Origin: Candidatus Hydrogenedentota bacterium | Lineage (GTDB): Bacteria; Hydrogenedentota; Hydrogenedentia; Hydrogenedentales; SLHB01 | NCBI GenBank assembly: GCA_963668025.2 | Contig: CAXXTH010000009.1 | Location: 96,001-160,000, forward strand | Direction: 5' to 3' | Length of the DNA: 64,000 nt | In this document: one piece after another, positions 27,189 through 38,979 of the stretch | Position numbering within the stretch: position 1 is the stretch's first letter | Layout: each line of letters starts with the position of its first letter | Notes under the pieces: model-generated | Databases searched by the model: none | Seen by the model: only the letters and a program-made list of their open reading frames with translations | What the model was told of the DNA's origin: nothing | Program-made: the position numbers and the translations under genes

Positions 27189-28901
27189 TTATGCCCCGAT
27201 GGTCATGAGCGCGTCGAGCATGGTATCGGCGACATTGATGACCCGTGCGGCGGCTTCATAGGCCCGCTGGTATTGAATGAGATAGGTGGTTTCTTCATCG
27301 AGTGAAACGCCGGAGTTTTCCTGCCTCTGCTCCTCATAATAGAGATTAAACTCTTCTTCGGTATCGAGCACTACCTGGTTGGATTGTGTGTCCACGCCGA
27401 GAAGGGCGATGGTGGATTCATAATAGCCGCTCAGTGTAGAAGAGCTATTTTCTAGAACGTTCAGATCTTGTATGGCTGCAAGCTCCAGGGCTGCGCTATT
27501 GTCGCCAGTGGCCAGTGTATCGAGGTCATAGGAGGAGCCTAGCAGTTGGGAGTTTTCCACGATGTCCGTATTCACTGCGATGGTATTCATGTCGTAGCCG
27601 GTAAACAAGCCATTGATGCCAAGCGCCACTAGGGCATTCGATGTGTCATTCGCAAAAGTGAATGAATACGTGGAATTTGTGACTCCTAGGGATAGGGTAT
27701 TGTCCCCATTTACCGTAGCTGTGAATTCGCCGGGTGCAATGGCGTTGAGTTCCGCTGCTAGATCATTCAGTGTATCGCCCGCGTCGACCGTGATGGTGAA
27801 CGGCGAGCCGGATATTTGGGTATCGCCATCGTAAATGGCCACCTGGAAGCTTCCTGCTTCCACATCAAAAGGCAAGCCGGCGGATTCCAGCGCGGAGGCT
27901 GCATCTGAAACCGCGTTGGTGCTTGATATGATGCCCGACAGGTTCTCAAGTCCATTGCTTTGGCTATTAATACTGTTGACTTGCTGGATAAGCTCCGACG
28001 CGATCTCATTCATACGGCCCATATAACTGGGGATCACTTCATCGCGAATTTCCAGTAAGCCCGCCAGCTCGCCATCTTCCACGGTGACATCTTTTCGATT
28101 GTCCGCGAAACGAACCGTTAGCAGATCCGAGCGTGTGGAATCGAGGGTGCTGTCCGTTTCCGCCACTAGTTCGTTTGCACCTGACAGATCCACGAGGCTA
28201 TCGGAGCCGATTCGCACCGTAACTTGCCCGTTCTCGAGTGTCGTATAATTGATATCGACCAGGCCCGCCAATTCATCTAGAGCGAGATCGCGTTGATCGC
28301 GCAAAGCATTGGCGGTGGTTCCGTTCAGTTCAGAATCCCGGATTTGGATGTTCAGATCGGCAAGTTGCTGTGACAAAGAGTTGATCTGGGTGACCATGCT
28401 TTTGATTTCTTCATTGGCGGAGGTGCGTAATTCATTAAGCTGGTCATATATGCTATTGAATGATTCGGCCAGTGCTTCGGCTTGCGCCACGGTGGCCTCC
28501 CGAACGGCTAAGTCTTCCACGTTATTGGAAAAGTCGCTCATGGAGTCAAAGAAATTGTTGATCTGCGTCCCGAAGCCTTCGTCCGTGGGTTCGAGAAAGG
28601 CGTTTTCGAGTTGATCATAATAGGTCGCCAGCGTATCGGCTTTGTTAAGGCCCGCTACTTGCTGGCGGTATACCTTGTCCAGGAATTCATCTCGAACGCG
28701 GCGGACTTCGCTAACCGTAACGCCGGTGCCCAATTGGCCAAAGGGGTATTTTATGGAAGCAGATTCGGACAAAGAAACCGTTTGGCGGGAGTAGCCTTCC
28801 GTATTGACGTTGGAAATGTTGTTCCCTGACACGCTGAGTTGCACTTGGGCGGCTTGCAGCCCAAGCCGGGCAATATCAAGGGTGCTGAATAACGTTCCCA
28901 A
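27189..28901 (-). CDS. flgK: Flagellar hook-associated protein 1 FlgK
   Basis: NNISNVNTEGYSRQ, LRDQRD, SGVSLDEE...YQRAYEAAARVI; likely TTG start at 28901 after TAAGGAG. Confidence 0.92.
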   Translation of the reverse strand: MGTLFSTLDIARLGLQAAQVQLSVSGNNISNVNTEGYSRQTVSLSESASIKYPFGQLGTGVTVSEVRRVRDEFLDKVYRQQVAGLNKADTLATYYDQLENAFLEPTDEGFGTQINNFFDSMSDFSNNVEDLAVREATVAQAEALAESFNSIYDQLNELRTSANEEIKSMVTQINSLSQQLADLNIQIRDSELNGTTANALRDQRDLALDELAGLVDINYTTLENGQVTVRIGSDSLVDLSGANELVAETDSTLDSTRSDLLTVRFADNRKDVTVEDGELAGLLEIRDEVIPSYMGRMNEIASELIQQVNSINSQSNGLENLSGIISSTNAVSDAASALESAGLPFDVEAGSFQVAIYDGDTQISGSPFTITVDAGDTLNDLAAELNAIAPGEFTATVNGDNTLSLGVTNSTYSFTFANDTSNALVALGINGLFTGYDMNTIAVNTDIVENSQLLGSSYDLDTLATGDNSAALELAAIQDLNVLENSSSTLSGYYESTIALLGVDTQSNQVVLDTEEEFNLYYEEQRQENSGVSLDEETTYLIQYQRAYEAAARVINVADTMLDALMTIGA

Positions 28902-28950
28902 CAGTGGTCTCCTTACATATCCCATAGCATCTATGCAATCTATATTCCAA

Positions 28951-28978
28951 CTATCGGCCAAATGCCTGGAGACCTTGA
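28951..28978 (-). promoter_or_regulatory. Putative sigma28 (FliA) promoter for flgK
   Basis: TCAAG-N15-GCCGATAG on the minus strand, about 50 nt upstream of the flgK start. Confidence 0.55.
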
Positions 28979-29091
28979 GGAAGGCACTAGAGTTGGACTT
29001 TCTCTGGGAGTGCAGGAGGTATGGCAACGAGGAAAGCGAGCATGGTAGGCAAAGATTGCCGGGTATCCGGCAGGAAACGCCATGGGGGCGG

Positions 29092-30387
29092 TCAGCCGTT
29101 GTGTGTGAGCCGCCTTGCCCGCGCATGGCGTAACAGGCCAAATTCGGCAATTAACGCTACCACCACGAGTAGGGGCGCAAGGCGAAACGCATCAGAAAAT
29201 CCCATGCGCTGCGCCAGGCAGCCGAAGAGCAGGCTTCCGATGAACACGCCCATGCCGACTGCGGCTTCGTTCATGGCGGCATTGCGGTGTTTATGAACAG
29301 CGTCAGACAAGCTGTAGTATGCCGCCGCGAAGAAGGAGACGCCGTGGTTGAATCCGAGTACGGCAAAACAAAACGCCATGACTATCAGGCTATGGGTGGT
29401 GCTGAGCAGCACAAACGACAAGCCTGCCGCAGCCTGCAAACCCATGAGTAAAGAAGCTTTATGACGCCATCCAGACGTCCGGCTCATCACCAGGAAACAC
29501 AGGCATACGACGAACGACAGCAGAAAGGCGAGCCAGGAATATTTTGTCGCGGGAGCTGCGGATAGCAGTTCTGAAGGGGCGGATTCGAACCAGAAACGCA
29601 GTTCTCCGCTGCGCACCAGGCTGTCGATGCGTGCGGGAAAGACAAACCGGGTCGCCGCCGTCAAGAGATTTGCCATGAGGGACGCACTCCAGCCGAGATA
29701 CAGAAAAGACTCGCTGGCGCGGTCATGGTCGCGGCGGGCCTCGAGCGTCTCGTTGGTGGCTTCACCGAAACAGCGCCGCTCGTGGGGCATGGACAACACC
29801 AGGAACAATGCAATGGTGATAGCTCCAAAAAGCAGGAAGAACGGCATGCGGAAATCGAAGTCATATAATGGTCCGGCAAACAGGGGCCCTATAGCGAAAC
29901 CTAGGCTCCATGATAGATTGAATAAACCCATATTATGGCTTCGGCGGTTTGGATCGGGCTCCGCCCCCACCCAAGAGTGGAGCGCTGGCCACACCAGGGC
30001 CATCGCACCCATGGAGCCCGTGGCGAGAATGCTGCAAATGACGGGATGGTGAAAAAACGGCAGGAGGCAAAAGAAGAGCGGATAGGCGATGAGCCCCGCC
30101 ACCGCCCATACAAGGCCGTTTTGGGTCCGCATGACATACCGCGCGGAAACCAAGCAGACCACCACGTAAGCTGCCGCCTGGACCGCGCCCATGACGCCAG
30201 ACATGGCTACGCCGCCGCCGATTTGGTTATACACAAAAAACGGCAGCACCACGGTTCCCACCATGCAGGCGAAATCCACCAGGAAAGCCGTAAGGTACAT
30301 TCTGTTCAAAGGACGCCACATAGAAGCGAGAGTGTAGGCGAGACCGTGCCAATAATCAAGAATGCGAATCCATGAATGCGAATCCAT
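29092..30387 (-). CDS. MFS transporter
   Basis: About 12 hydrophobic segments, GLFNLSWSLGFAIGPLFAG motif; true start may be about 30320. Confidence 0.8.
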   Translation of the reverse strand: MDSHSWIRILDYWHGLAYTLASMWRPLNRMYLTAFLVDFACMVGTVVLPFFVYNQIGGGVAMSGVMGAVQAAAYVVVCLVSARYVMRTQNGLVWAVAGLIAYPLFFCLLPFFHHPVICSILATGSMGAMALVWPALHSWVGAEPDPNRRSHNMGLFNLSWSLGFAIGPLFAGPLYDFDFRMPFFLLFGAITIALFLVLSMPHERRCFGEATNETLEARRDHDRASESFLYLGWSASLMANLLTAATRFVFPARIDSLVRSGELRFWFESAPSELLSAAPATKYSWLAFLLSFVVCLCFLVMSRTSGWRHKASLLMGLQAAAGLSFVLLSTTHSLIVMAFCFAVLGFNHGVSFFAAAYYSLSDAVHKHRNAAMNEAAVGMGVFIGSLLFGCLAQRMGFSDAFRLAPLLVVVALIAEFGLLRHARARRLTHNG

Positions 30388-30429: not shown

Positions 30430-31347
30430 TTATGCCTGTTTTTTTGTTCCGTATTCCGACTTGGCGATAAACCAGTCATTGGGACAAACAACTTCGCGAG
30501 GGCCTCGCTGGATATTTTCCGCAAGCGCATCCAGATCTCTGATTACCACGTTTCTGTAGCCCAGGCCGGCAAGTGTGCGCTGGAGGTCTGCTGGGGTATC
30601 GGGATATGGAAACGGGCAGAACAACGGGTGGCCCAGCTTTTCCTCGATTCGCTGGTTCAGGCGGTTAATACGGTTGTTCGGCCAGTAATCAAAAATCACG
30701 GAGCTTCCCGCCGCCAGCTCGAGCGTCTTGGGGTCGAGCAGATGAGCGGTCGTCTCGGAAGCTAGGAAATATACGAGGCCTTCCATGAGCACCAGGACCG
30801 GCACGGATTTTTGAAATCCCATTGCGCATAATCGCCGCAGCAAATCTGGTTGCGCCAAGTCTGCTGGCACTTGCTTGATGTATGAGGGCGCCGCGACCCC
30901 GGCTTGGGATAATACGTGCTGTTTGCATGCAAGTTTGTCGGGGTAATCCACCTCGAATACCTCGACGGAGCCGCCGCCGAACTCTGGCATCGAGATGGAG
31001 CGGGTATCATATCCAGCGCCAAGGATGAGCAATTGGTGATACCGGGAAGCGGCTTCCCGGATTTGTTCAGTGAAATAACGATAGCGCACAAGGTTGAATG
31101 GCGCATAAGAAGGATCGACCGATTCCGCCAGCCCTGCCATGCGTTTGCCTGCATCCGTGACGAAGCAGGCAGCGTATGGATCCACAACGCCGAAAGGCCC
31201 TGCCAGTGCTTCGTTCGCGCGGAGGACTACCAAAGCATCAGCGGTTACTTGGATGCTCATCGGGTCACGCTGGCTGTTCATTTCCATTCCTCCAAGTATG
31301 TAAAACGCGTATCTGTTGCCAAGACGCGCCGGGAGTTTGACATTCAC
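30430..31347 (-). CDS. SAM-dependent methyltransferase (leucine carboxyl methyltransferase-like family)
   Basis: DPYA..F, ILGAGYDTR, FEVDYP, EGLVYF; start possibly 31281. Confidence 0.88.
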   Translation of the reverse strand: MNVKLPARLGNRYAFYILGGMEMNSQRDPMSIQVTADALVVLRANEALAGPFGVVDPYAACFVTDAGKRMAGLAESVDPSYAPFNLVRYRYFTEQIREAASRYHQLLILGAGYDTRSISMPEFGGGSVEVFEVDYPDKLACKQHVLSQAGVAAPSYIKQVPADLAQPDLLRRLCAMGFQKSVPVLVLMEGLVYFLASETTAHLLDPKTLELAAGSSVIFDYWPNNRINRLNQRIEEKLGHPLFCPFPYPDTPADLQRTLAGLGYRNVVIRDLDALAENIQRGPREVVCPNDWFIAKSEYGTKKQA

Positions 31348-31602: not shown

Positions 31603-32487
31603 TCAAAAGGAAATCGACGAAAAGATCAGTTCATCGCCATACAATGAGCTGCTGTCTTTCCGATATTGTGATGGGGTCATGTGGAAAAAGGCCTTGAATT
31701 CACGGCTAAAATGATATTGATTGCAAAAACCGACTCGTTCGGCAATCTGGGCGAGCGGTGAGTCATTGAGCACCAAGAGTTTGCAGGCTTCAGATAGGCG
31801 GACTTGTTTCACGTAATCCATGGGCGTGCAGCCCATGTGCTGGTGGAAAAAGACATGGAAGCGCGATGAGGACATGTGAGCTAGTTGAGCAAGTTGTGAT
31901 ACGGATAAAGGTTCTGCAAAATAATCCCGTATATAGGAGAAAACCGATGTCAGACGCCCCGAGTGTTGCAGGATGGTGAGGCTTTTGGGGCGCAGAGGGG
32001 CGATTTCACATAGAATATGCAAGGCGGAAAAGGCCAGCTCATGGCGTCGAGTGAACCAATGCATGGAAAATTCGTTTTTGGGTGGTAGCGAATCTACTAG
32101 TTCTTGAATGATTACGCCAAGCCGTCCCGCCGGTTCGGAGGGGATCCGGAGCGGCAAGTCCATCAGCGACAACAAATCCAATGTATCAAAAAGGGTAAAA
32201 TGTAAATGGAGCCAGCGTGCTCCCATCCAGCCATCATGTGCGGGATCTCCGTGATGGATGAGCCTGAGGCTTCGGTTGGCTGGAGTTAGAAACGCCTCGC
32301 CAGGGCGAATCACCTCGCTACGCCCTTCGCATGTTATCTCATAATAGCCAAAAAGGGCTTGGGCAACAATGGTGGCGGGCACGATTTTCTGAAGCACCCA
32401 CTCGTTAGGAGTTCGCAGGCAACATCCATGCGTGATGTGGTTCAACGTAAGGGCCTCGGGCGGAATCATTGCTGTGATGGATGCCAT
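31603..32487 (-). CDS. AraC-family transcriptional regulator
   Basis: C-terminal double HTH (IAERVGFCNQYHFSREFK..TPSQYR), N-terminal cupin-like domain. Confidence 0.93.
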   Translation of the reverse strand: MASITAMIPPEALTLNHITHGCCLRTPNEWVLQKIVPATIVAQALFGYYEITCEGRSEVIRPGEAFLTPANRSLRLIHHGDPAHDGWMGARWLHLHFTLFDTLDLLSLMDLPLRIPSEPAGRLGVIIQELVDSLPPKNEFSMHWFTRRHELAFSALHILCEIAPLRPKSLTILQHSGRLTSVFSYIRDYFAEPLSVSQLAQLAHMSSSRFHVFFHQHMGCTPMDYVKQVRLSEACKLLVLNDSPLAQIAERVGFCNQYHFSREFKAFFHMTPSQYRKDSSSLYGDELIFSSISF

Positions 32488-32974
32488 GCGGCTACGCCTT
32501 TATGACTAAGATTGCCTATGCCTGGCAAAAGCATATCAAATGAATCCGCATATTAAAAATGTTGCATGTTCCGTTTTCTCTAAGAATGAGGGCGGCGATG
32601 TATTTCGCGCATCATGGCCCGGATTGCTCACTGCGGCAGCCTTACCAGACGGGCAAAATTTTCAGATAAATATTCGCAATTCAAGGACATTCCCATGAAG
32701 ACCAAATGGAGATTACAATATATCCATGAATCAACATGCATACAGCGATTCAACTGGCGATAAATGGTTGATTTTACACTGCGAAGTGAGCACCCGATGC
32801 ACAGGCTGCTCTTCTAACCCCCATCTCCGCAGAGGCGGAGGCAAACGCCAGGAAACGCGGCGCGTGGCAGGGACAACAGGCATGGATAAAGAGCGGCTTC
32901 GAGCCCATACCGGTGAACATGAAGCATCACTTTAGGCGGATGTAGATTCTTCCTAAACGAGAGAGGAGCAAAAC

Positions 32975-35260
32975 ATGGCAAGTAAGGCAAGTGGAATGAA
33001 CCGTCGGGATTTCTTCAAATCCACGGGGGCGGGCGTTGCCCTTGCCGGTGGGTTGTTAGTTACAACTGCATCTGCATCCAGCGCCGCCGAAACCAAGCTT
33101 ATTGACGGAACAAACCGCTATGTGTGGAGTGAGCCATGGCGGCCAGTTTCTCCGAGGCGTCTATCAGAACGGACGCATGAACTCACGCGGCTCGGGGCTT
33201 CGGGAGAACATGGCCGTGCGATGGTAAAAGCCGATTTTAATCTGGACGAAGAGTTAATCAAGAGTCTCACACCTAATCAGCATTATGCGCAGGCGATTCG
33301 CTTGATCGGGGAGAAGGCCCCTTTGCGCATCTTGCCGGGCGAAAAAATCGTCGGCTCCGCCACCTTGCTTGAAGCGACTGCCGCATATACGCCGGTGTAT
33401 AACCAACTAGCTCAAAATCACATGACGCTGGGCTTCGACCATGTGCTCACGATTGGATACAAAGGATTGCGTGAGCAGATCAATGAGCGATTAAGCCGGG
33501 GCGGATTGGACGCCAACGGGACGGACATGCTGCAAGCGATGCTGGTTTGCCTGGAAGGCGCGGAGATCTGGCGGCAGCGGAATATGGAATTACTGGCGAA
33601 ACTGGCTAGTGAATCCACCGGTGAAGATCAAGCCAATTATCTGCGCGTACGGGAAATCTTAGCGCGCGTGCCCGAGAATCCGCCCCAGACGTTCCATGAG
33701 GCGGTGCAATCGTTGTGGTTCATGTTCGCGTTCCAGCGGTTATGCGGCACTTTTTCAGGGATCGGCCGCTTCGACGAAATGTTGGGTGGCTACTTAGAGA
33801 AGGATTTACGCGAAGGGCGGCTAACCCTGGATGAAGCGCGTGAGATCGTGGCCCACTTCTGGATCAAGGGAACGGAATGGGTAGGCTGTTACAAAAATCC
33901 CGGCTCGGGCGATGGCATGTTTTTTCAAAACATCATCCTGGGCGGGATTGATGCCGATGGAAAATCGGTCACCAATGATGTCACCTACCTGGTGCTGGAC
34001 GTGGTCGAGGAGTTGCATATTAGCGATTTCCCGATCGGGGTGCGTGTCAGCGAGCAGACTCCCAAAAATCTGCTTAGGCGTATCGCCGAGGTCGAGCGTT
34101 ATGGCGGCGGGATCATCGCCCTCTACCAAGAAGATGTCGTAATCGATGGATTGGTCAAGATAGGCGTTCCTCTTGCTGATGCGCGGCGCTTCACCAATGA
34201 TGGCTGCTGGGAAGTCCAGGTGCCTGGGAAAACCTGTTTTATCTACTGGCCATTCGACATGCTGACTGTGCTACAGCGTTCGCTGGGCATTGATAATCCA
34301 GACACGCCCGCAGCCGATTTCGCCGACTTCGATGCGCTTTATGCGGCATATCATCAAGAGATGGACCGGCTGCTTACCCGTTTCCATACGGAAGCGGATT
34401 CTTATGCCTCGGGTGTCGGGACGACGCCGCTCGTTTCCATGTTTGTTCAAAACTGCATTGAAAGCGGGCGTGACTATTACGGGCGCGGCGCGCAATATCA
34501 GATGCTCTCGCCGCATGCTGGCGGCATGGCGAACGTCGCCAACAGCTTGCTGGCGATTAAGCGGCTCGTATATGAAGACAAAACGCTCTCTTGGCCCGAG
34601 ATGCTGGCGATTCTGCGTTCGGACTGGAAAGGGCAAGAGCAGTTGCGCCTCCTGGTGTTGAACCGGTTTGAATTTTATGGCAACGACAATGAAGAGTCCG
34701 ATGCGATGATGCAACGGGTATTCAATGATTACACGGATTTAGTCTGGGCCGTACCCGAACGCAATGGAGTTCTGCGGCCAGCAGGCATCAGTACTTTCGG
34801 ACGCGAGTGCTACGCTTTCCTAGACACGGGTTTTTGCGGTTATGATACTCGCCGTGCTACAGCCGACGGGCACCGTGTAGGCGATGTGCTGGCCTGCAAT
34901 TTTTCGCCTTCACCGGGAACCGATCGCAAAGGGCCTTCGGCTGTCCTCAATTCTTACTGCAAAATGGATTTTACTCGCACACCCAATGGAGCTACTTTGG
35001 AACTAAAGCTCCATCCTTCGTCCTTGAAAGGTGAGGAGGGGCTCGATGCTCTGGTGGGGCTCATGCGCGGATTCATTCGCCAGCGCGGCTGGTTCGTCCA
35101 TATCGACGTGGTCGATTCGGCAATTATGGCCGATGCGAAGCTTCACCCGGAAAAATATCCCGACCTGGCGGTGCGCATATCAGGCTGGTCGGCCCGTTTC
35201 GCCTCACTTGACGAAAGATGGCAGAACATGATCATTAATCGTACGCAACAATACGTCTGA
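32975..35260 (+). CDS. Glycyl radical enzyme (PFL-like family) with an N-terminal Tat signal peptide
   Basis: NRRDFFK twin-arginine motif + hydrophobic stretch + ASA; P.TFHEAVQSLWF, GRFD, Cys loop DGCWE, YGNDN..D, SPSPG.D.KGP, Gly loop HPEKYPDLAVRISGWSARF. Confidence 0.92.
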   Translation: MASKASGMNRRDFFKSTGAGVALAGGLLVTTASASSAAETKLIDGTNRYVWSEPWRPVSPRRLSERTHELTRLGASGEHGRAMVKADFNLDEELIKSLTPNQHYAQAIRLIGEKAPLRILPGEKIVGSATLLEATAAYTPVYNQLAQNHMTLGFDHVLTIGYKGLREQINERLSRGGLDANGTDMLQAMLVCLEGAEIWRQRNMELLAKLASESTGEDQANYLRVREILARVPENPPQTFHEAVQSLWFMFAFQRLCGTFSGIGRFDEMLGGYLEKDLREGRLTLDEAREIVAHFWIKGTEWVGCYKNPGSGDGMFFQNIILGGIDADGKSVTNDVTYLVLDVVEELHISDFPIGVRVSEQTPKNLLRRIAEVERYGGGIIALYQEDVVIDGLVKIGVPLADARRFTNDGCWEVQVPGKTCFIYWPFDMLTVLQRSLGIDNPDTPAADFADFDALYAAYHQEMDRLLTRFHTEADSYASGVGTTPLVSMFVQNCIESGRDYYGRGAQYQMLSPHAGGMANVANSLLAIKRLVYEDKTLSWPEMLAILRSDWKGQEQLRLLVLNRFEFYGNDNEESDAMMQRVFNDYTDLVWAVPERNGVLRPAGISTFGRECYAFLDTGFCGYDTRRATADGHRVGDVLACNFSPSPGTDRKGPSAVLNSYCKMDFTRTPNGATLELKLHPSSLKGEEGLDALVGLMRGFIRQRGWFVHIDVVDSAIMADAKLHPEKYPDLAVRISGWSARFASLDERWQNMIINRTQQYV

Positions 35261-35267
35261 GCCTGTC

Positions 35268-36170
35268 GTGGCGCAAGCGCTTGTTTTTCAGATACAACGT
35301 TTTTGCACGCACGACGGTCCGGGCATACGCACGGCAGTTTTCCTTAAGGGATGTCCGCTGCATTGCGCATGGTGCCATAATCCCGAGTCACAGGGATTTG
35401 AGCGGGATTTGTTTTTCACGCCGGTGTTATGCATCGGGTGTGGCGCCTGCGCCGGGGTTTGTCCCCATAATGTGCATCGAATGGAGGATGGCCGCCATGT
35501 GTTGGACCGTAGCCGGTGCCACCGGTGCATGCGTTGTGTCGAGGTTTGCCCGGCCCGAGCCTTGGAGGTTGCGGGCCGGGCGGTGCTCGTTTCGTCGATT
35601 ATCGATGAAGTAGAGCGCGACCGCATTTATTATGAAGAGTCGGGCGGCGGGCTGACCATCACCGGGGGCGAGCCGCTGGCGCATGTGAAATTCACCCAAG
35701 CCTTATTGGAAGAAGCCCGCCGCCGTGGCTTTCACACCTGCATCGAAACGTGTGGATTCGCTCCGCCCGAGCGGATAATGGCCTTGTCCGGGCTGGTCGA
35801 TCTTTTCCTGTGGGACATCAAAGACACGGATCCACAGCGCCACCAGGCAATGACCGATGCGCCACTGGCGCCGATTATGGATAATCTGAGGCGGGTGGAT
35901 GCGGCCGGAGGGCATACATGGCTGCGGTGCGTGCTGGTGGACGGCGTCAATCTAACCGAACCGCATATCGAGGCGCTGGCGGCATTATATAAAAGCTTGA
36001 GCCATTGCCAGGGCATTATATTGCTGCCCTATCATCCCCTGGGTAACTCGAAACTGGAGAGGCTGGGGTTTACTGCGTGCGATGAGGATTTCAGGACGCC
36101 ATCTCCCCAGGCGCTCGAAGCCGCCCGTGCCCGTTTGACTGGGTTAGGCGCTGTGTGCCTTGGCGAATGA
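35268..36170 (+). CDS. Glycyl-radical enzyme activating enzyme (radical SAM with ferredoxin-like insertion)
   Basis: HDGPGIRTAVFLKGCPLHCAWCHNPES; CIGCGAC...C and CHRCMRC...CP; TGGEP. Confidence 0.95.
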   Translation: MAQALVFQIQRFCTHDGPGIRTAVFLKGCPLHCAWCHNPESQGFERDLFFTPVLCIGCGACAGVCPHNVHRMEDGRHVLDRSRCHRCMRCVEVCPARALEVAGRAVLVSSIIDEVERDRIYYEESGGGLTITGGEPLAHVKFTQALLEEARRRGFHTCIETCGFAPPERIMALSGLVDLFLWDIKDTDPQRHQAMTDAPLAPIMDNLRRVDAAGGHTWLRCVLVDGVNLTEPHIEALAALYKSLSHCQGIILLPYHPLGNSKLERLGFTACDEDFRTPSPQALEAARARLTGLGAVCLGE

Positions 36171-36369: not shown

Positions 36370-38979
36370 TTATTCGCCAGTGGCCGCAGCATTCTCCACT
36401 TTTTTATACGTGATCAGGTCAGAGGTGCGCGGCTCGGGTAAATCGAGCACGAGGCGCTTCATCAGTTCCGAGCCTATCATCTGGATTGTCTTTCCCGTCC
36501 GGTCGCTCTTGAGTTCATACATGGATTGCGGTTCAAGCCCTTGAAGGCGGACATCAAGAGTGCCATAAGGCGAATCCTTGCGGCGGAAAACAAGGAGCAT
36601 TCCCTCGCCCAGCTCAGGCCGGTGGTATTGCGAGGCCACCCAGCTTGTATTCAGATGCTCATGATAGGGCGGATAATGCATCCCGCCAAGTTTGGGATCA
36701 GCAGGAAATTTGTCATAATCCCATTCCCACATCTCCGCTTCCGAGGTTTGCTGTCCTGAATACTCGTAGGGGTAGGGAGTCAGCGGATACCATGCCCCCA
36801 CCATAAGGTGGCGCACCTGAAGGTAGCGGTCCGTCAAGGCTTTGGCCCGAGTGGAATCGAAGTCGGGAGCGTCGGCGATCCAGCCTAAGCACAACGAAGC
36901 CGCCAATGCCGAATGGAAGGAGTAATCATCCATATTATTAATATGCGTGGACAATGTATTGTTGGGTAAATACTGGCTGATGGACCACACGCTGGCCTGG
37001 TTAGCCTCATCGTCAAACCAGTAATCCGCCAATTGGTGTATGTCCAGGCGCATGACGGTTCCCAACTCGATCCGGTGGCCGCCGCTGGCGCATTCATCCA
37101 TGAAGCAATCAGGCCAGGCTGCCCGAATACGGTCCCAATAGGCATACATGCCTTCGACATACCGGATCTCGGTGATCCCTTGCCGGTTGGGGTCCGTATC
37201 GCCAATGTGCCAATAGGGCAGCGGGTCCATGTTGAAATCCTGGCGGTAGACGCGGAAACCCGGCAGATCCATGAAGCCTTTGACGATGTTAAAGAAGTAG
37301 TCTTGCACTTCTTTCATGCCAAAATTGGCCAGGCAGGTGGTGTTGTTGGGATCATCAGGGAACAGCAGCCAGTCGGGATGATTTTGATGCAATGAAGTTC
37401 CCTTAATCACCCGTTCGGGTTCAAACCACAGGCCGTAGATCATTCCGTTTTCCTTGGCTGCCGCGGCCACTGGCCCCATGCCGTTGGGATAGGCATCTTT
37501 GCGTGGATCCCAGTTGCCAGCGCCCGCTGGCCAGCCGCCGGTGAACCAGCCCGCATCGGTGAATATGGCCTCCAGGCCCAGCGGGGCATAGGCCTTTATC
37601 AACGATATTTGATTTTGCTCGTTGCATTCATTAAGCCAGCCGCCGCCACGGGTGAATGCGGTGTTGCAAAAGAGCGTGGGCAGTGGGGCTTTGCCGGTGC
37701 GGCTCACCGCATAATGTTTATAGATGAGCTGGCGGAAACGGGCGTGGGCTTCGTTAACCGTTGCTTCGTTCAGGACGAGCACGCGCGGCTGGCGCACCTT
37801 TTCACCGGAGTGCAGCAGGAAATGGGTCTTTTGCATGCCAGCGCGGGCGTGTAAATTACCTTCCTGATTGGAGAACTCTCCCTGCCACGTGCCGGACCAT
37901 TCCAAGGTGAACACAAAGGTTCCCTCGCCCGTTTCTAAACGGAAGAACGGCGCGTTCGAGGAGGAGGTGCGGCCGGAGAACGAACCGATGGTTTCGGTCA
38001 CGCCATCATGAAGATTGACGGTGTTCGGCTGTAACAAGGTCGGATGCGGCACGCCGCCACGCAGTTTCTGCAGGCGGTAAGGAATCGAGCCAGGCATGGT
38101 GTGGTTCCAGTTGAGGTCCAGCGATTGAATATCTTCTAGAATGGCGGTGTCTTGCTGGCCCGTGTTTTCAAAGTACAGAATCCAGTCCACCGCCGGGAAA
38201 TCTTTATAGTAAATGGATTCCCAGGCCACTTTGAGCTTGGTCTCCGGATCTTTCCAGGTTAGAGTTTTTTTGAAGCGGTCTTGATCCAACTCGCTCGATT
38301 TCTCCTCACAAGGCCACGCCTTCAGTAGTTCCCGGCTTGGCTTGCCGCCGTATGTAAATGAAAACGGAAAACCTGAGGGCAACACCTCTTTTTTCAGGGG
38401 CATCTGATCGAGCATTTTTATCGTCCCTTTTTCCGTGATGATGGCGGCGTCCGCCCAATCCGCATGATCGCAACCGATGCCATCTCCCCCGTCGAAGGCC
38501 ACCAAATCAAACTGCTTGGCTCCTCCTATCGCCACTTCAATGTGCTGTGGCTCCGAGTCATAACGAAACAAGTTGGAGCGATATACCTCGCGTTCATCAA
38601 CCACAACGGAGAAAATTATTGAAGCGCCCGTGGCCTGTGGATTTTGATCTACGCCAATCCAGGCGGAAAACGTCTTGACTGGTTCGGGCGAGTTTACGCG
38701 GATATGGCTGTTGGCATGTGCGCCTAAGCCATGGGCAAATTCTTTTTGGCCGAGCTTCATCGGCGTTTGAACCGCGGACTGGCCAAACTGTAATTCACAA
38801 GCATCCTGCTTGAGCAAATTAAGAACAAAATCGGTAGGTTCTGGAATGGAGTCCGCCCCTTTGGCCAGTGACTCTTGCCAAGGAGTCAAGCCTTGCGCCT
38901 CGCTCGGTTTACTCCCAAACGCGAAAACCAGCGCGAGAATAGCAAGCGTTATTCTTAATCGTTGCATCTTCTTTTTCAT
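36370..38979 (-). CDS. Secreted GH36 alpha-galactosidase-like hydrolase with NPCBM domain
   Basis: Sec signal; NPCBM (GLGAHANS, GDGIGCDHADWADA); DAGWF, GLWFEPE, RQDFN, CASGGHR. Confidence 0.85.
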   Translation of the reverse strand: MKKKMQRLRITLAILALVFAFGSKPSEAQGLTPWQESLAKGADSIPEPTDFVLNLLKQDACELQFGQSAVQTPMKLGQKEFAHGLGAHANSHIRVNSPEPVKTFSAWIGVDQNPQATGASIIFSVVVDEREVYRSNLFRYDSEPQHIEVAIGGAKQFDLVAFDGGDGIGCDHADWADAAIITEKGTIKMLDQMPLKKEVLPSGFPFSFTYGGKPSRELLKAWPCEEKSSELDQDRFKKTLTWKDPETKLKVAWESIYYKDFPAVDWILYFENTGQQDTAILEDIQSLDLNWNHTMPGSIPYRLQKLRGGVPHPTLLQPNTVNLHDGVTETIGSFSGRTSSSNAPFFRLETGEGTFVFTLEWSGTWQGEFSNQEGNLHARAGMQKTHFLLHSGEKVRQPRVLVLNEATVNEAHARFRQLIYKHYAVSRTGKAPLPTLFCNTAFTRGGGWLNECNEQNQISLIKAYAPLGLEAIFTDAGWFTGGWPAGAGNWDPRKDAYPNGMGPVAAAAKENGMIYGLWFEPERVIKGTSLHQNHPDWLLFPDDPNNTTCLANFGMKEVQDYFFNIVKGFMDLPGFRVYRQDFNMDPLPYWHIGDTDPNRQGITEIRYVEGMYAYWDRIRAAWPDCFMDECASGGHRIELGTVMRLDIHQLADYWFDDEANQASVWSISQYLPNNTLSTHINNMDDYSFHSALAASLCLGWIADAPDFDSTRAKALTDRYLQVRHLMVGAWYPLTPYPYEYSGQQTSEAEMWEWDYDKFPADPKLGGMHYPPYHEHLNTSWVASQYHRPELGEGMLLVFRRKDSPYGTLDVRLQGLEPQSMYELKSDRTGKTIQMIGSELMKRLVLDLPEPRTSDLITYKKVENAAATGE

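Follow-up and report, generated by a model that had tools for sequence, protein, structure and literature searches.

Can an enzyme that works through a glycyl radical be carried across the cytoplasmic membrane and act on its other side? Glycyl radical enzymes (GREs) are regarded as catalysts of the cell interior only, since their radical needs S-adenosylmethionine (SAM), a low-potential reductant and shielding from O2. The question is raised by a GRE gene in a stretch of 64,000 nucleotides from a Candidatus Hydrogenedentota bacterium (this whole stretch is called the window below). The product of the gene begins with a predicted signal peptide for export by twin-arginine translocation (Tat), and we think it rather probable that the protein is a Tat-exported GRE which is activated before export. 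The kind of enzyme is itself already known; what appears to be new is a Tat signal on a GRE.

An initial annotation of this DNA had stated that it knew of no described periplasmic GRE. Our literature searches, which covered the main text of papers, agree with this in that they returned no exported or periplasmic GRE. The accessible text of a 2026 review of GREs (PMC13450708) has no match for periplasm, twin-arginine, export or secret and treats only cytoplasmic and microcompartment GREs, the accessible text of a 2026 Tat review (PMC13673990) has no match for 'radical', and the passages available from PMC9324843 and PMC7807696 have no bearing on exported GREs.

Identity of the glycyl radical enzyme

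The GRE gene is found on the forward strand at positions 32975-35260; it starts with ATG, encodes 761 amino acids (aa), and its translation begins with MASKASGMNRRDFFKSTGAGVALAGGLLVTTASASSAAE. A Shine-Dalgarno-like sequence, GAGAGGAG, is located at 32961-32968 of the same strand, 6 nucleotides (nt) ahead of the start codon, so the good ribosome-binding site noted earlier is indeed present. Residues 36-761 plus the stop codon (33080-35260) make up the predicted mature enzyme, as delimited by Pfam, alignment and an AlphaFold2 model. Two Pfam domains cover most of it: PFL-like, the ten-stranded barrel domain (PF02901), at residues 138-601 (E 1.1e-103) and Gly_radical (PF01228) at residues 642-742 (E 5.9e-22). 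The residues expected of a radical catalyst are all in place. C411, E413, H149 and G737 are invariant in 70 aligned members of the subfamily, as is the entire Cys loop N408-D-G-C411-W-E413 (NDGC411WE413, 34196-34213), which aligns with the GCvE loop of the solved dehydratases 1r8w and 5i2a. The C-terminal radical motif is R734-I-S-G737-W-S-A-R-F (RISGWSARF), in which R734, G737 and W738 are invariant in the same alignment; the codon of the radical glycine is at 35183-35185.

The protein reaches the curated cut-off of none of the characterised GRE family models with which it was compared. It scores 348.8 bits against TIGR01774, the PFL2/glycerol dehydratase subfamily (cut-off 678.2), 332.1 bits against the HypD model NF043068, its second-best NCBIfam match (cut-off 1100), 261.8 bits against HpfG (cut-off 1000) and 234.9 bits against CutC (cut-off 1050). 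Since it falls below the curated cut-offs of all these models, we assign it to an uncharacterised subfamily. The closest solved structures found by phmmer in the PDB are 1,2-propanediol dehydratase 5i2a (E 1.8e-83; 4.2e-80 was also obtained for dehydratases of the 1r8w/5i2a type), glycerol dehydratase 1r8w and HypD 6vxc (E 1.1e-75), and all of these align with the window protein only from residue 146 on. An AlphaFold2 model built on 70 relatives has a mean pLDDT (predicted local distance difference test) of 90.2 and a pTM (predicted template modelling score) of 0.90, and the top Foldseek matches of the model are again 1,2-propanediol and glycerol dehydratases.

It is useful to compare the protein with these dehydratases (1r8w, 5i2a/5i2g) at this point. 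They have the same GRE barrel fold (Foldseek TM score 0.81), a common Cys-x-Glu loop, a diol-binding His with which H149 of the window protein aligns, and an activase of the same kind with two extra 4Fe-4S motifs. The differences are just as clear. Sequence identity in the structural alignment is 25-26%, and the first ~145 residues of the window protein cannot be aligned to the known dehydratases; in their place it has the putative Tat signal and a subfamily-specific region, which opens at the motif WRPxxPxRLS after a variable linker that extends to about residue 55. The known dehydratases are cytoplasmic or microcompartment enzymes, whereas the window protein is predicted to be Tat-targeted. 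HypD is likewise a GRE eliminase, but the window protein lies far under its equivalog cut-off and is not an ortholog, and HypD has no signal peptide. On the evidence of sequence and predicted fold, the window protein is a true GRE, and its type is that of the 1,2-eliminases (dehydratases/lyases).

The predicted signal peptide

The first 35 residues of the GRE (32975-33079) read MASKASGM-N-RR-DFFK-STGAGVALAGGLLVTTA-SA and SSAAE comes next. The n-region motif N-R-R-D-F-F-K (32999-33019, with the two arginine codons at 33002-33007) matches the consensus (S/T)-R-R-x-F-L-K, and it is followed by 23 uncharged, Gly/Ala-rich residues. These include the h-region STGAGVALAGGLLVTTA (33020-33070) and the c-region ASA (33071-33079), with predicted cleavage after Ala35; the h-region is thus weakly hydrophobic and is followed by a signal-peptidase site of the AxA form (STGAGVALAGGLLVTTASA). 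The initial annotation had read the N-R-R-D-F-F-K motif, the hydrophobic stretch and ASA in the same way, and we come to the same tripartite signal at residues 1-35 from the translation, the logo of the clade and the confidence profile of the structure model; the Tat models TIGR01409 and PF10518 match residues 8-34 with scores just short of their cut-offs. In the structure model pLDDT is below 50 at residues 1-8 and 18-52, there is a lone helix at residues 10-24, and the confident fold starts only from about residue 55. Low confidence over residues 1-52 together with an isolated helix is what would be expected of a signal peptide plus a linker.

How often does such an N-terminus occur in the genome as a whole? 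Among 9671 open frames of at least 150 aa, a strict filter ([ST]RRxF[LIVM][KRQ]) retains 5 and a loose twin-arginine (RR) filter retains 87, of which ~17 were judged to be clean RR N-termini. Two of the four GREs of the genome belong to these ~17, and by this count the RR motif of the GRE exceeds chance expectation.

Conservation of the signal among homologues

A word-indexed protein search with the window GRE gave 1781 matches, and the 120 listed ones, which are 54-65% identical to it, were surveyed for the signal together with one further sequence (P0123). A motif RRx[FLIVM] near the N-terminus was found in 91 of these 121 homologues. The logo of the 91 is [NDS]-R-R-[DE]-F-[LIV]-K/R, with F in 86 sequences and K in 62 or R in 13 at the last position. 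The RR motif is followed by an uncharged stretch with a median length of 17 residues, the best 12-residue Kyte-Doolittle mean of the h-region has a clade median of 1.64, and an AxA site is present in 71 of the 91. The distance from RR to RLS, the first conserved motif of the mature part, varies between 43 and 59 residues. Such variation fits a signal that is cut off, whereas a structural element would not be expected to show it. Most of the 30 homologues that lack RR either begin at the RLS motif or are truncated gene calls that start within the h-region. PF10518 matches 27 of 60 scanned clade members at E <=0.1 (the best at 1e-05).

Signals were no longer seen at greater distance. In the exhaustive representative search, proteins with 40-50% identity (P0125-P0139, ~700-730 aa) have no signal and align from query residue 58-61, and in the representative search generic GREs (<=35% identity) have none either and align only from residue 146.

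The family varies in other respects too. Among the 120 listed homologues 42 (within P0009-P0121) are ~960 aa long and contain a Laminin_G_3 domain, i.e. a lectin-like or concanavalin-like insert, in a surface loop that corresponds to query residues 178-182 (~33506-33520 in the window). A lectin-like domain within a GRE is unusual in itself. In signal-less members from Lentisphaerota (L060, L067, L068 and P0124) some 200 additional aa of another kind are located close to the N-terminus.

Loci and phylogeny of the subfamily

A scan with one genome per species found 569 relatives, from which the best 80 loci were retained and the open frames upstream were read. Of these best 80, 30 have RR, 6 have RK, 6 have a single Arg, 1 has a remnant of the signal, 36 have none and 1 is cut by a contig end. 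The 30 RR loci are labelled Planctomycetota, Hydrogenedentota, Armatimonadota including Chthonomonadales, Bacteroidota and Nitrospirales, and the 36 signal-less ones belong to Lentisphaerota, Chloroflexota and Kiritimatiellota or, for some of them, to Planctomycetota or Armatimonadota. The initial annotation had proposed that conservation of the RR peptide within a clade would be telling, and it is found in both surveys: in the 91 of 121 close homologues given above and, counting the RK and single-Arg forms, as a signal at 42 of the 80 loci.

The distribution of the signal was placed on a maximum-likelihood tree that IQ-TREE inferred for the mature region in a quick search under LG+G4 (96 rows, 692 columns), with five generic GREs as outgroup. 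L037 and L042 were left out of it because of broken frames, and some of its basal forks are unresolved. In this tree 38 signal-less rows form one clade (97 in the Shimodaira-Hasegawa-like approximate likelihood ratio test, SH-aLRT). The signal-bearing rows lie outside this clade: 40 belong to a group of 46 (support 87), and there is an RR clade of 5 rows from Armatimonadota (support 98). The window GRE groups with sequences from Hydrogenedentota, Planctomycetota and Sumerlaeota. On 95 rows the presence and absence of the signal can be explained by 5 changes, fewer than in any shuffle of the group labels. Since generic GREs have no signals, at least one gain followed by several losses is the simplest reading, with a number and a direction of changes that a quick tree does not fix.

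A second GRE lineage also carries such N-termini. Among 123 representatives of at least 600 aa, P0204 is a generic GRE outside the subfamily (32% identical to the window protein) with an RR N-terminus, and RR plus a hydrophobic stretch is present in 17 of the 34 members of its group (P0204 and P0272-P0304, at least 45% identity). The group is labelled Planctomycetota, Verrucomicrobia and Kiritimatiellales, and siblings without the signal start straight at the ordinary GRE N-terminal helix. As this lineage keeps the usual HypD-like N-terminal architecture, its Tat-type signal looks like an independent acquisition.

Tat system and candidate passengers of the genome

The assembly to which the window belongs is 6.1 Mb long in 24 contigs and 93.75% complete. 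It had been suggested that tat genes should be sought here, and both tatC and tatA were found: TatC matches at 1.7e-62 and two TatA-like genes at 6.1e-17 and 4.0e-5, with Omp85 at 5.5e-62. These matches indicate a Tat system and a diderm envelope with its outer membrane. A heme-copper oxidase gave no match in this genome.

Each of the four GREs of the genome has its own activase. The second one with an RR N-terminus is a paralog of the window protein (P0004, C17:989289-991568, or L098:8290-10569; 759 aa, 64% identical) that begins with LDRRDFIK, a hydrophobic stretch and AQASA, and it is part of the same module, with a divergent AraC gene and an activase gene downstream. Next to this module are the binding protein and the permease of a sugar ABC transporter, and the reverse transcriptase of a group II intron. 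A further GRE with an activase, an open frame of 918 codons without a signal, is found at C9:88127-92400, ~4-8 kb before the start of the window, and the fourth GRE-activase pair is on C18.

Ten of the RR N-termini of this genome were scanned with Pfam. They belong to two sulfatases, a phosphodiesterase-type protein, a Gfo/Idh/MocA protein, a GH109 (glycoside hydrolase family 109) protein, an aldo-keto reductase, a DUF362 protein, a DUF3604 protein, a metallo-beta-lactamase-fold protein and one protein without a family; by their predicted families these are typical Tat passengers. RR frames resembling sulfatases are found, for example, at C9:15840-17291, C17:1315695-1317089, C18:198392-199960, C18:461623-463455 and C22:119924-121375, two of them confirmed by Pfam and the others judged from the N-terminal sequence. 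An anaerobic sulfatase maturase (anSME) is encoded at C18:269344-270399 (396.5 bits, cut-off 349.45). RR sulfatases together with anSME suggest that sulfatases may be matured in the cytoplasm and then exported by Tat in this organism. Judging from gene content, radical-SAM maturation in the cytoplasm followed by export is thus plausibly already in operation there.

Activase, regulator and neighbouring genes

The gene downstream of the GRE (35268-36170, forward strand, 300 aa) encodes a GRE-activating radical-SAM enzyme. It scores 306.6 bits against TIGR02494 (cut-off 174.35), and Pfam finds a Radical_SAM domain and two ferredoxin-like 4Fe-4S motifs; the CxxxCxxC motif is C29-PLH-C33-AW-C36. 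Its GTG start codon at 35268 lies 7 nt after the GRE stop and its N-terminus, VAQALVFQIQRFCTHDGPG, has no signal, which is what had been reported for it. The initial annotation had further considered that the activase is perhaps exported along with the GRE, and this finds no support: none of the 26 activase-like open reading frames (ORFs) adjoining these GREs, the one in the window included, has a signal, and in some genomes with signal-bearing GREs the only activase is distant from the GRE. An adjacent activase was found at 22 of 43 signal-bearing loci versus 4 of 36 signal-less ones, raw counts that are confounded by relatedness and by contig ends.

An AraC-family regulator of 294 aa (31603-32487, reverse strand; HTH_18 2.1e-24, HTH_AraC 9.9e-20) is divergent from the GRE gene. 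The suggested link between this regulator and the GRE does exist. The gene is present in the window and a homologous one also lies beside the paralog on C17, but the association is modest, with a homologous divergent AraC (cluster c2) at only 9 of 81 loci. Over these 81 loci the recurrent neighbours are the activase (26), AraC (9) and a sulfatase (7); GH31 and GH95 glycoside hydrolases also occur. In the region between AraC and GRE there is a promoter-like site at 32690-32719 and a 69-codon ORF (32726-32935, forward strand) that is probably no gene.

Convergent with the activase gene is a gene for a putatively exported, alpha-galactosidase-like protein with NPCBM and Melibiase domains (36370-38979, reverse strand), which has a Sec-type signal and the N-terminus MKKKMQRLRITLAILALVFAFGSKPSEAQG. 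It is the first gene of a reverse-strand sugar-catabolism island that extends from 36370 to ~51016. The island also encodes a DUF386 protein, a Gfo/Idh/MocA protein, a cyclase, a KDPG (2-keto-3-deoxy-6-phosphogluconate) aldolase, a PfkB kinase, an SDR (short-chain dehydrogenase/reductase), a DeoC-type aldolase, a class II aldolase, an enolase-superfamily dehydratase, a DUF6786 protein, a RhaT-like transporter and a LacI regulator. Taken together it looks like an island for the catabolism of a deoxyhexose or a sugar acid.

On the other side of the AraC gene lie a gene of the leucine carboxyl methyltransferase family (30430-31347) and an ORF for an MFS (major facilitator superfamily) transporter (29092-30387, reverse strand). 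The latter is overlapped by ~60 nt by an ORF for a FlgK-like flagellar hook-associated protein (27189-29150, reverse strand), whose TTG start codon has probably been placed too far upstream, because its FlgK Pfam match opens only at residue 91.

Proposed mechanism and alternative explanations

We propose the following course, in which export, removal of the signal, activation before export and the substrate class are all inferred. The GRE would fold in the cytoplasm, where the signal-less activase, with SAM and a low-potential electron, would abstract a hydrogen from Gly737. The RR signal would then take the folded, radical-bearing enzyme through TatABC and would be cut after Ala-Ser-Ala35, and the GRE would act in the periplasm for the lifetime of its radical; its activity would last no longer than this because re-activation is impossible there. 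As substrate we would expect a compound with hydroxyl groups, probably of carbohydrate origin, which is set free or processed outside the cytoplasm. Four features suggest an elimination reaction on such a substrate, probably one derived from a sugar: the Cys-x-Glu loop, the invariant His149, the neighbourhood and the Laminin_G_3 insert.

The proposed order of events has parallels among known Tat passengers that are matured in the cytoplasm, such as glucose-fructose oxidoreductase and the molybdo- and Fe-S enzymes, where by the same logic a modification that can only take place in the cytoplasm precedes export. Formylglycine sulfatases matured by anSME follow the same order, and RR sulfatases, Gfo/Idh/MocA and GH109 proteins and anSME are all found in the genome studied here. 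The difference lies in the cargo. Known Tat passengers carry a stable cofactor or covalent modification, whereas the cargo of the window GRE would be a reactive, O2-labile backbone radical, and we know of no described Tat passenger that carries one, nor did our searches return any.

Several observations weigh against export of an active GRE. O2 destroys glycyl radicals, and since restoring them takes SAM and a cytoplasmic reductant, an exported GRE would be single-use. On residues 8-34 of the window protein both Tat models stay just under their cut-offs, TIGR01409 with 16.3 bits (cut-off 16.7) and PF10518 with 18.3 bits (E 0.0022, cut-off 22.7). All 12 RK and single-Arg loci (L013, L015, L017, L021, L022, L024-L026, L029, L034, L061 and L073) are from Bacteroidota. 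Their motifs are SRKEFLK for RK and SRAEFLK, SRADFLK or SRSEFLK for single Arg, with the remaining signal retained, and the isolate record Alistipes hominis New-7 (L024) is one of the single-Arg loci. One locus from Armatimonadia has a hydrophobic remnant without RR. The RR pair is thus not under absolute constraint. Of the genomes that carry a signal-bearing GRE 35 of 41 have a TatC match, as do 37 of the 38 that carry a signal-less one, and since TatC is near-universal in both sets its co-occurrence provides no support; two Cryptobacteroides metagenome-assembled genomes (MAGs) with RR-GREs, both small, had no TatC match. The mature domains of 45 signal-bearing and 44 signal-less members did not differ in cysteine content (medians 10 vs 9, p 0.95) and were alike in net charge (p 0.77), so that composition adds nothing independent in favour of the periplasm. 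Finally, other conserved neighbours were not found at the 81 loci, and the neighbourhood is so poorly conserved that the substrate cannot be read from it.

The principal alternative is that the RR peptide is conserved for a role on the cytoplasmic side, for example by giving a chaperone or the Tat receptor something to grip or by tethering the protein to the membrane, while the GRE remains in the cytoplasm and no active enzyme is exported. The variant and remnant signals, the 6 of 41 genomes in which TatC was not found, the lack of a compositional shift and the fact that an exported GRE could not be re-activated would all fit such a role. Moreover, all characterised GREs are cytoplasmic or reside in microcompartments, the only ones covered in the accessible text of PMC13450708. 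What speaks against a cytoplasmic role is that the entire tripartite signal is kept, with AxA in 71 of 91 sequences and a linker of variable length, and not the RR box alone; that the signal arose in two unrelated GRE lineages; and that it was lost cleanly in nested lineages, as expected if it switched localisation on or off. A peptide with such a role would resemble the RR-like N-terminus of NarG, an enzyme that works on the cytoplasmic side. In NarG the vestigial Tat signal is without a functional RR pair and cleavage site, and vestigial signals, to our knowledge, lose the h-region and cleavage site, whereas the clade studied here keeps RR, h-region and AxA. We consider a purely cytoplasmic role unlikely, yet it is the alternative to be taken most seriously. 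Less probable by a good measure is that the signal is an uncleaved Tat anchor on the outer face of the inner membrane, or that the protein is exported free of the radical for a non-catalytic or different role. Rieske proteins have Tat-inserted N-terminal anchors, the Rieske Tat signal PF10399 weakly matches 4 of 60 scanned members, and 20 of the 91 RR homologues have no strict AxA. On the other hand, the window GRE has ASA at residues 33-35 and most of its relatives have AxA; the invariance of Gly737, Cys411 and Glu413 in 70 of 70 members shows that radical catalysis is under selection; and all four GREs of the genome are provided with activases of their own.

Two further explanations concern the N-terminus as such. 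Translation might start downstream, e.g. at the TTG of codon 27, in which case RR would belong to an untranslated leader, and in-frame TTG and GTG codons are indeed available there. The initial annotation had named a start below the RR motif as a way in which its reading could fail. We regard such an artefact as very improbable, because at the protein level the motif persists across several phyla among sequences of 54-65% identity and the folded core begins only at about residue 55; the paralog P0004 keeps the motif amid different surrounding sequence, and the strong Shine-Dalgarno sequence lies 6 nt before the ATG at 32975. The N-terminus might instead be an encapsulation peptide, since GRE microcompartments are known to sequester GREs and there an N-terminal peptide likewise shifts the enzyme's place of action, according to the accessible text of PMC13450708. 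The peptide of the window GRE is a hydrophobic RR signal and not an amphipathic helix, its predicted destination is the periplasm, and the bacterial microcompartment shell domain PF00936 has no match in the 93.75%-complete genome, so that microcompartment targeting was rejected and encapsulation appears hardly credible.

Implications

The preferred reading, export of an already activated GRE by Tat, would surprise specialists of both the GRE and the Tat fields. In a broader and more tentative form, to which we would give a little less than an even chance, we speculate that the multi-phylum GRE clade and, independently, the second lineage are exported by Tat in radical-bearing form. They would perform O2-sensitive elimination in the periplasm of anaerobic diderms, gut Bacteroidales included, on glycan-derived substrates that are not imported, such as deoxy- or sulfated sugars, bound in many members by the Laminin_G_3 insert. 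Glycyl radical chemistry outside the cytoplasm would then be known for the first time. As the signal is short and portable, the claim is directly testable, and the clade includes the record of a cultured isolate, the Alistipes hominis strain New-7 already mentioned. If the clade works outside the cytoplasm, Tat would be able to move a protein-based radical across a membrane, anaerobes would own a radical tool for substrates that they do not import, probably glycans, and an uncharted class of enzymes would be present in gut and wastewater bacteria.

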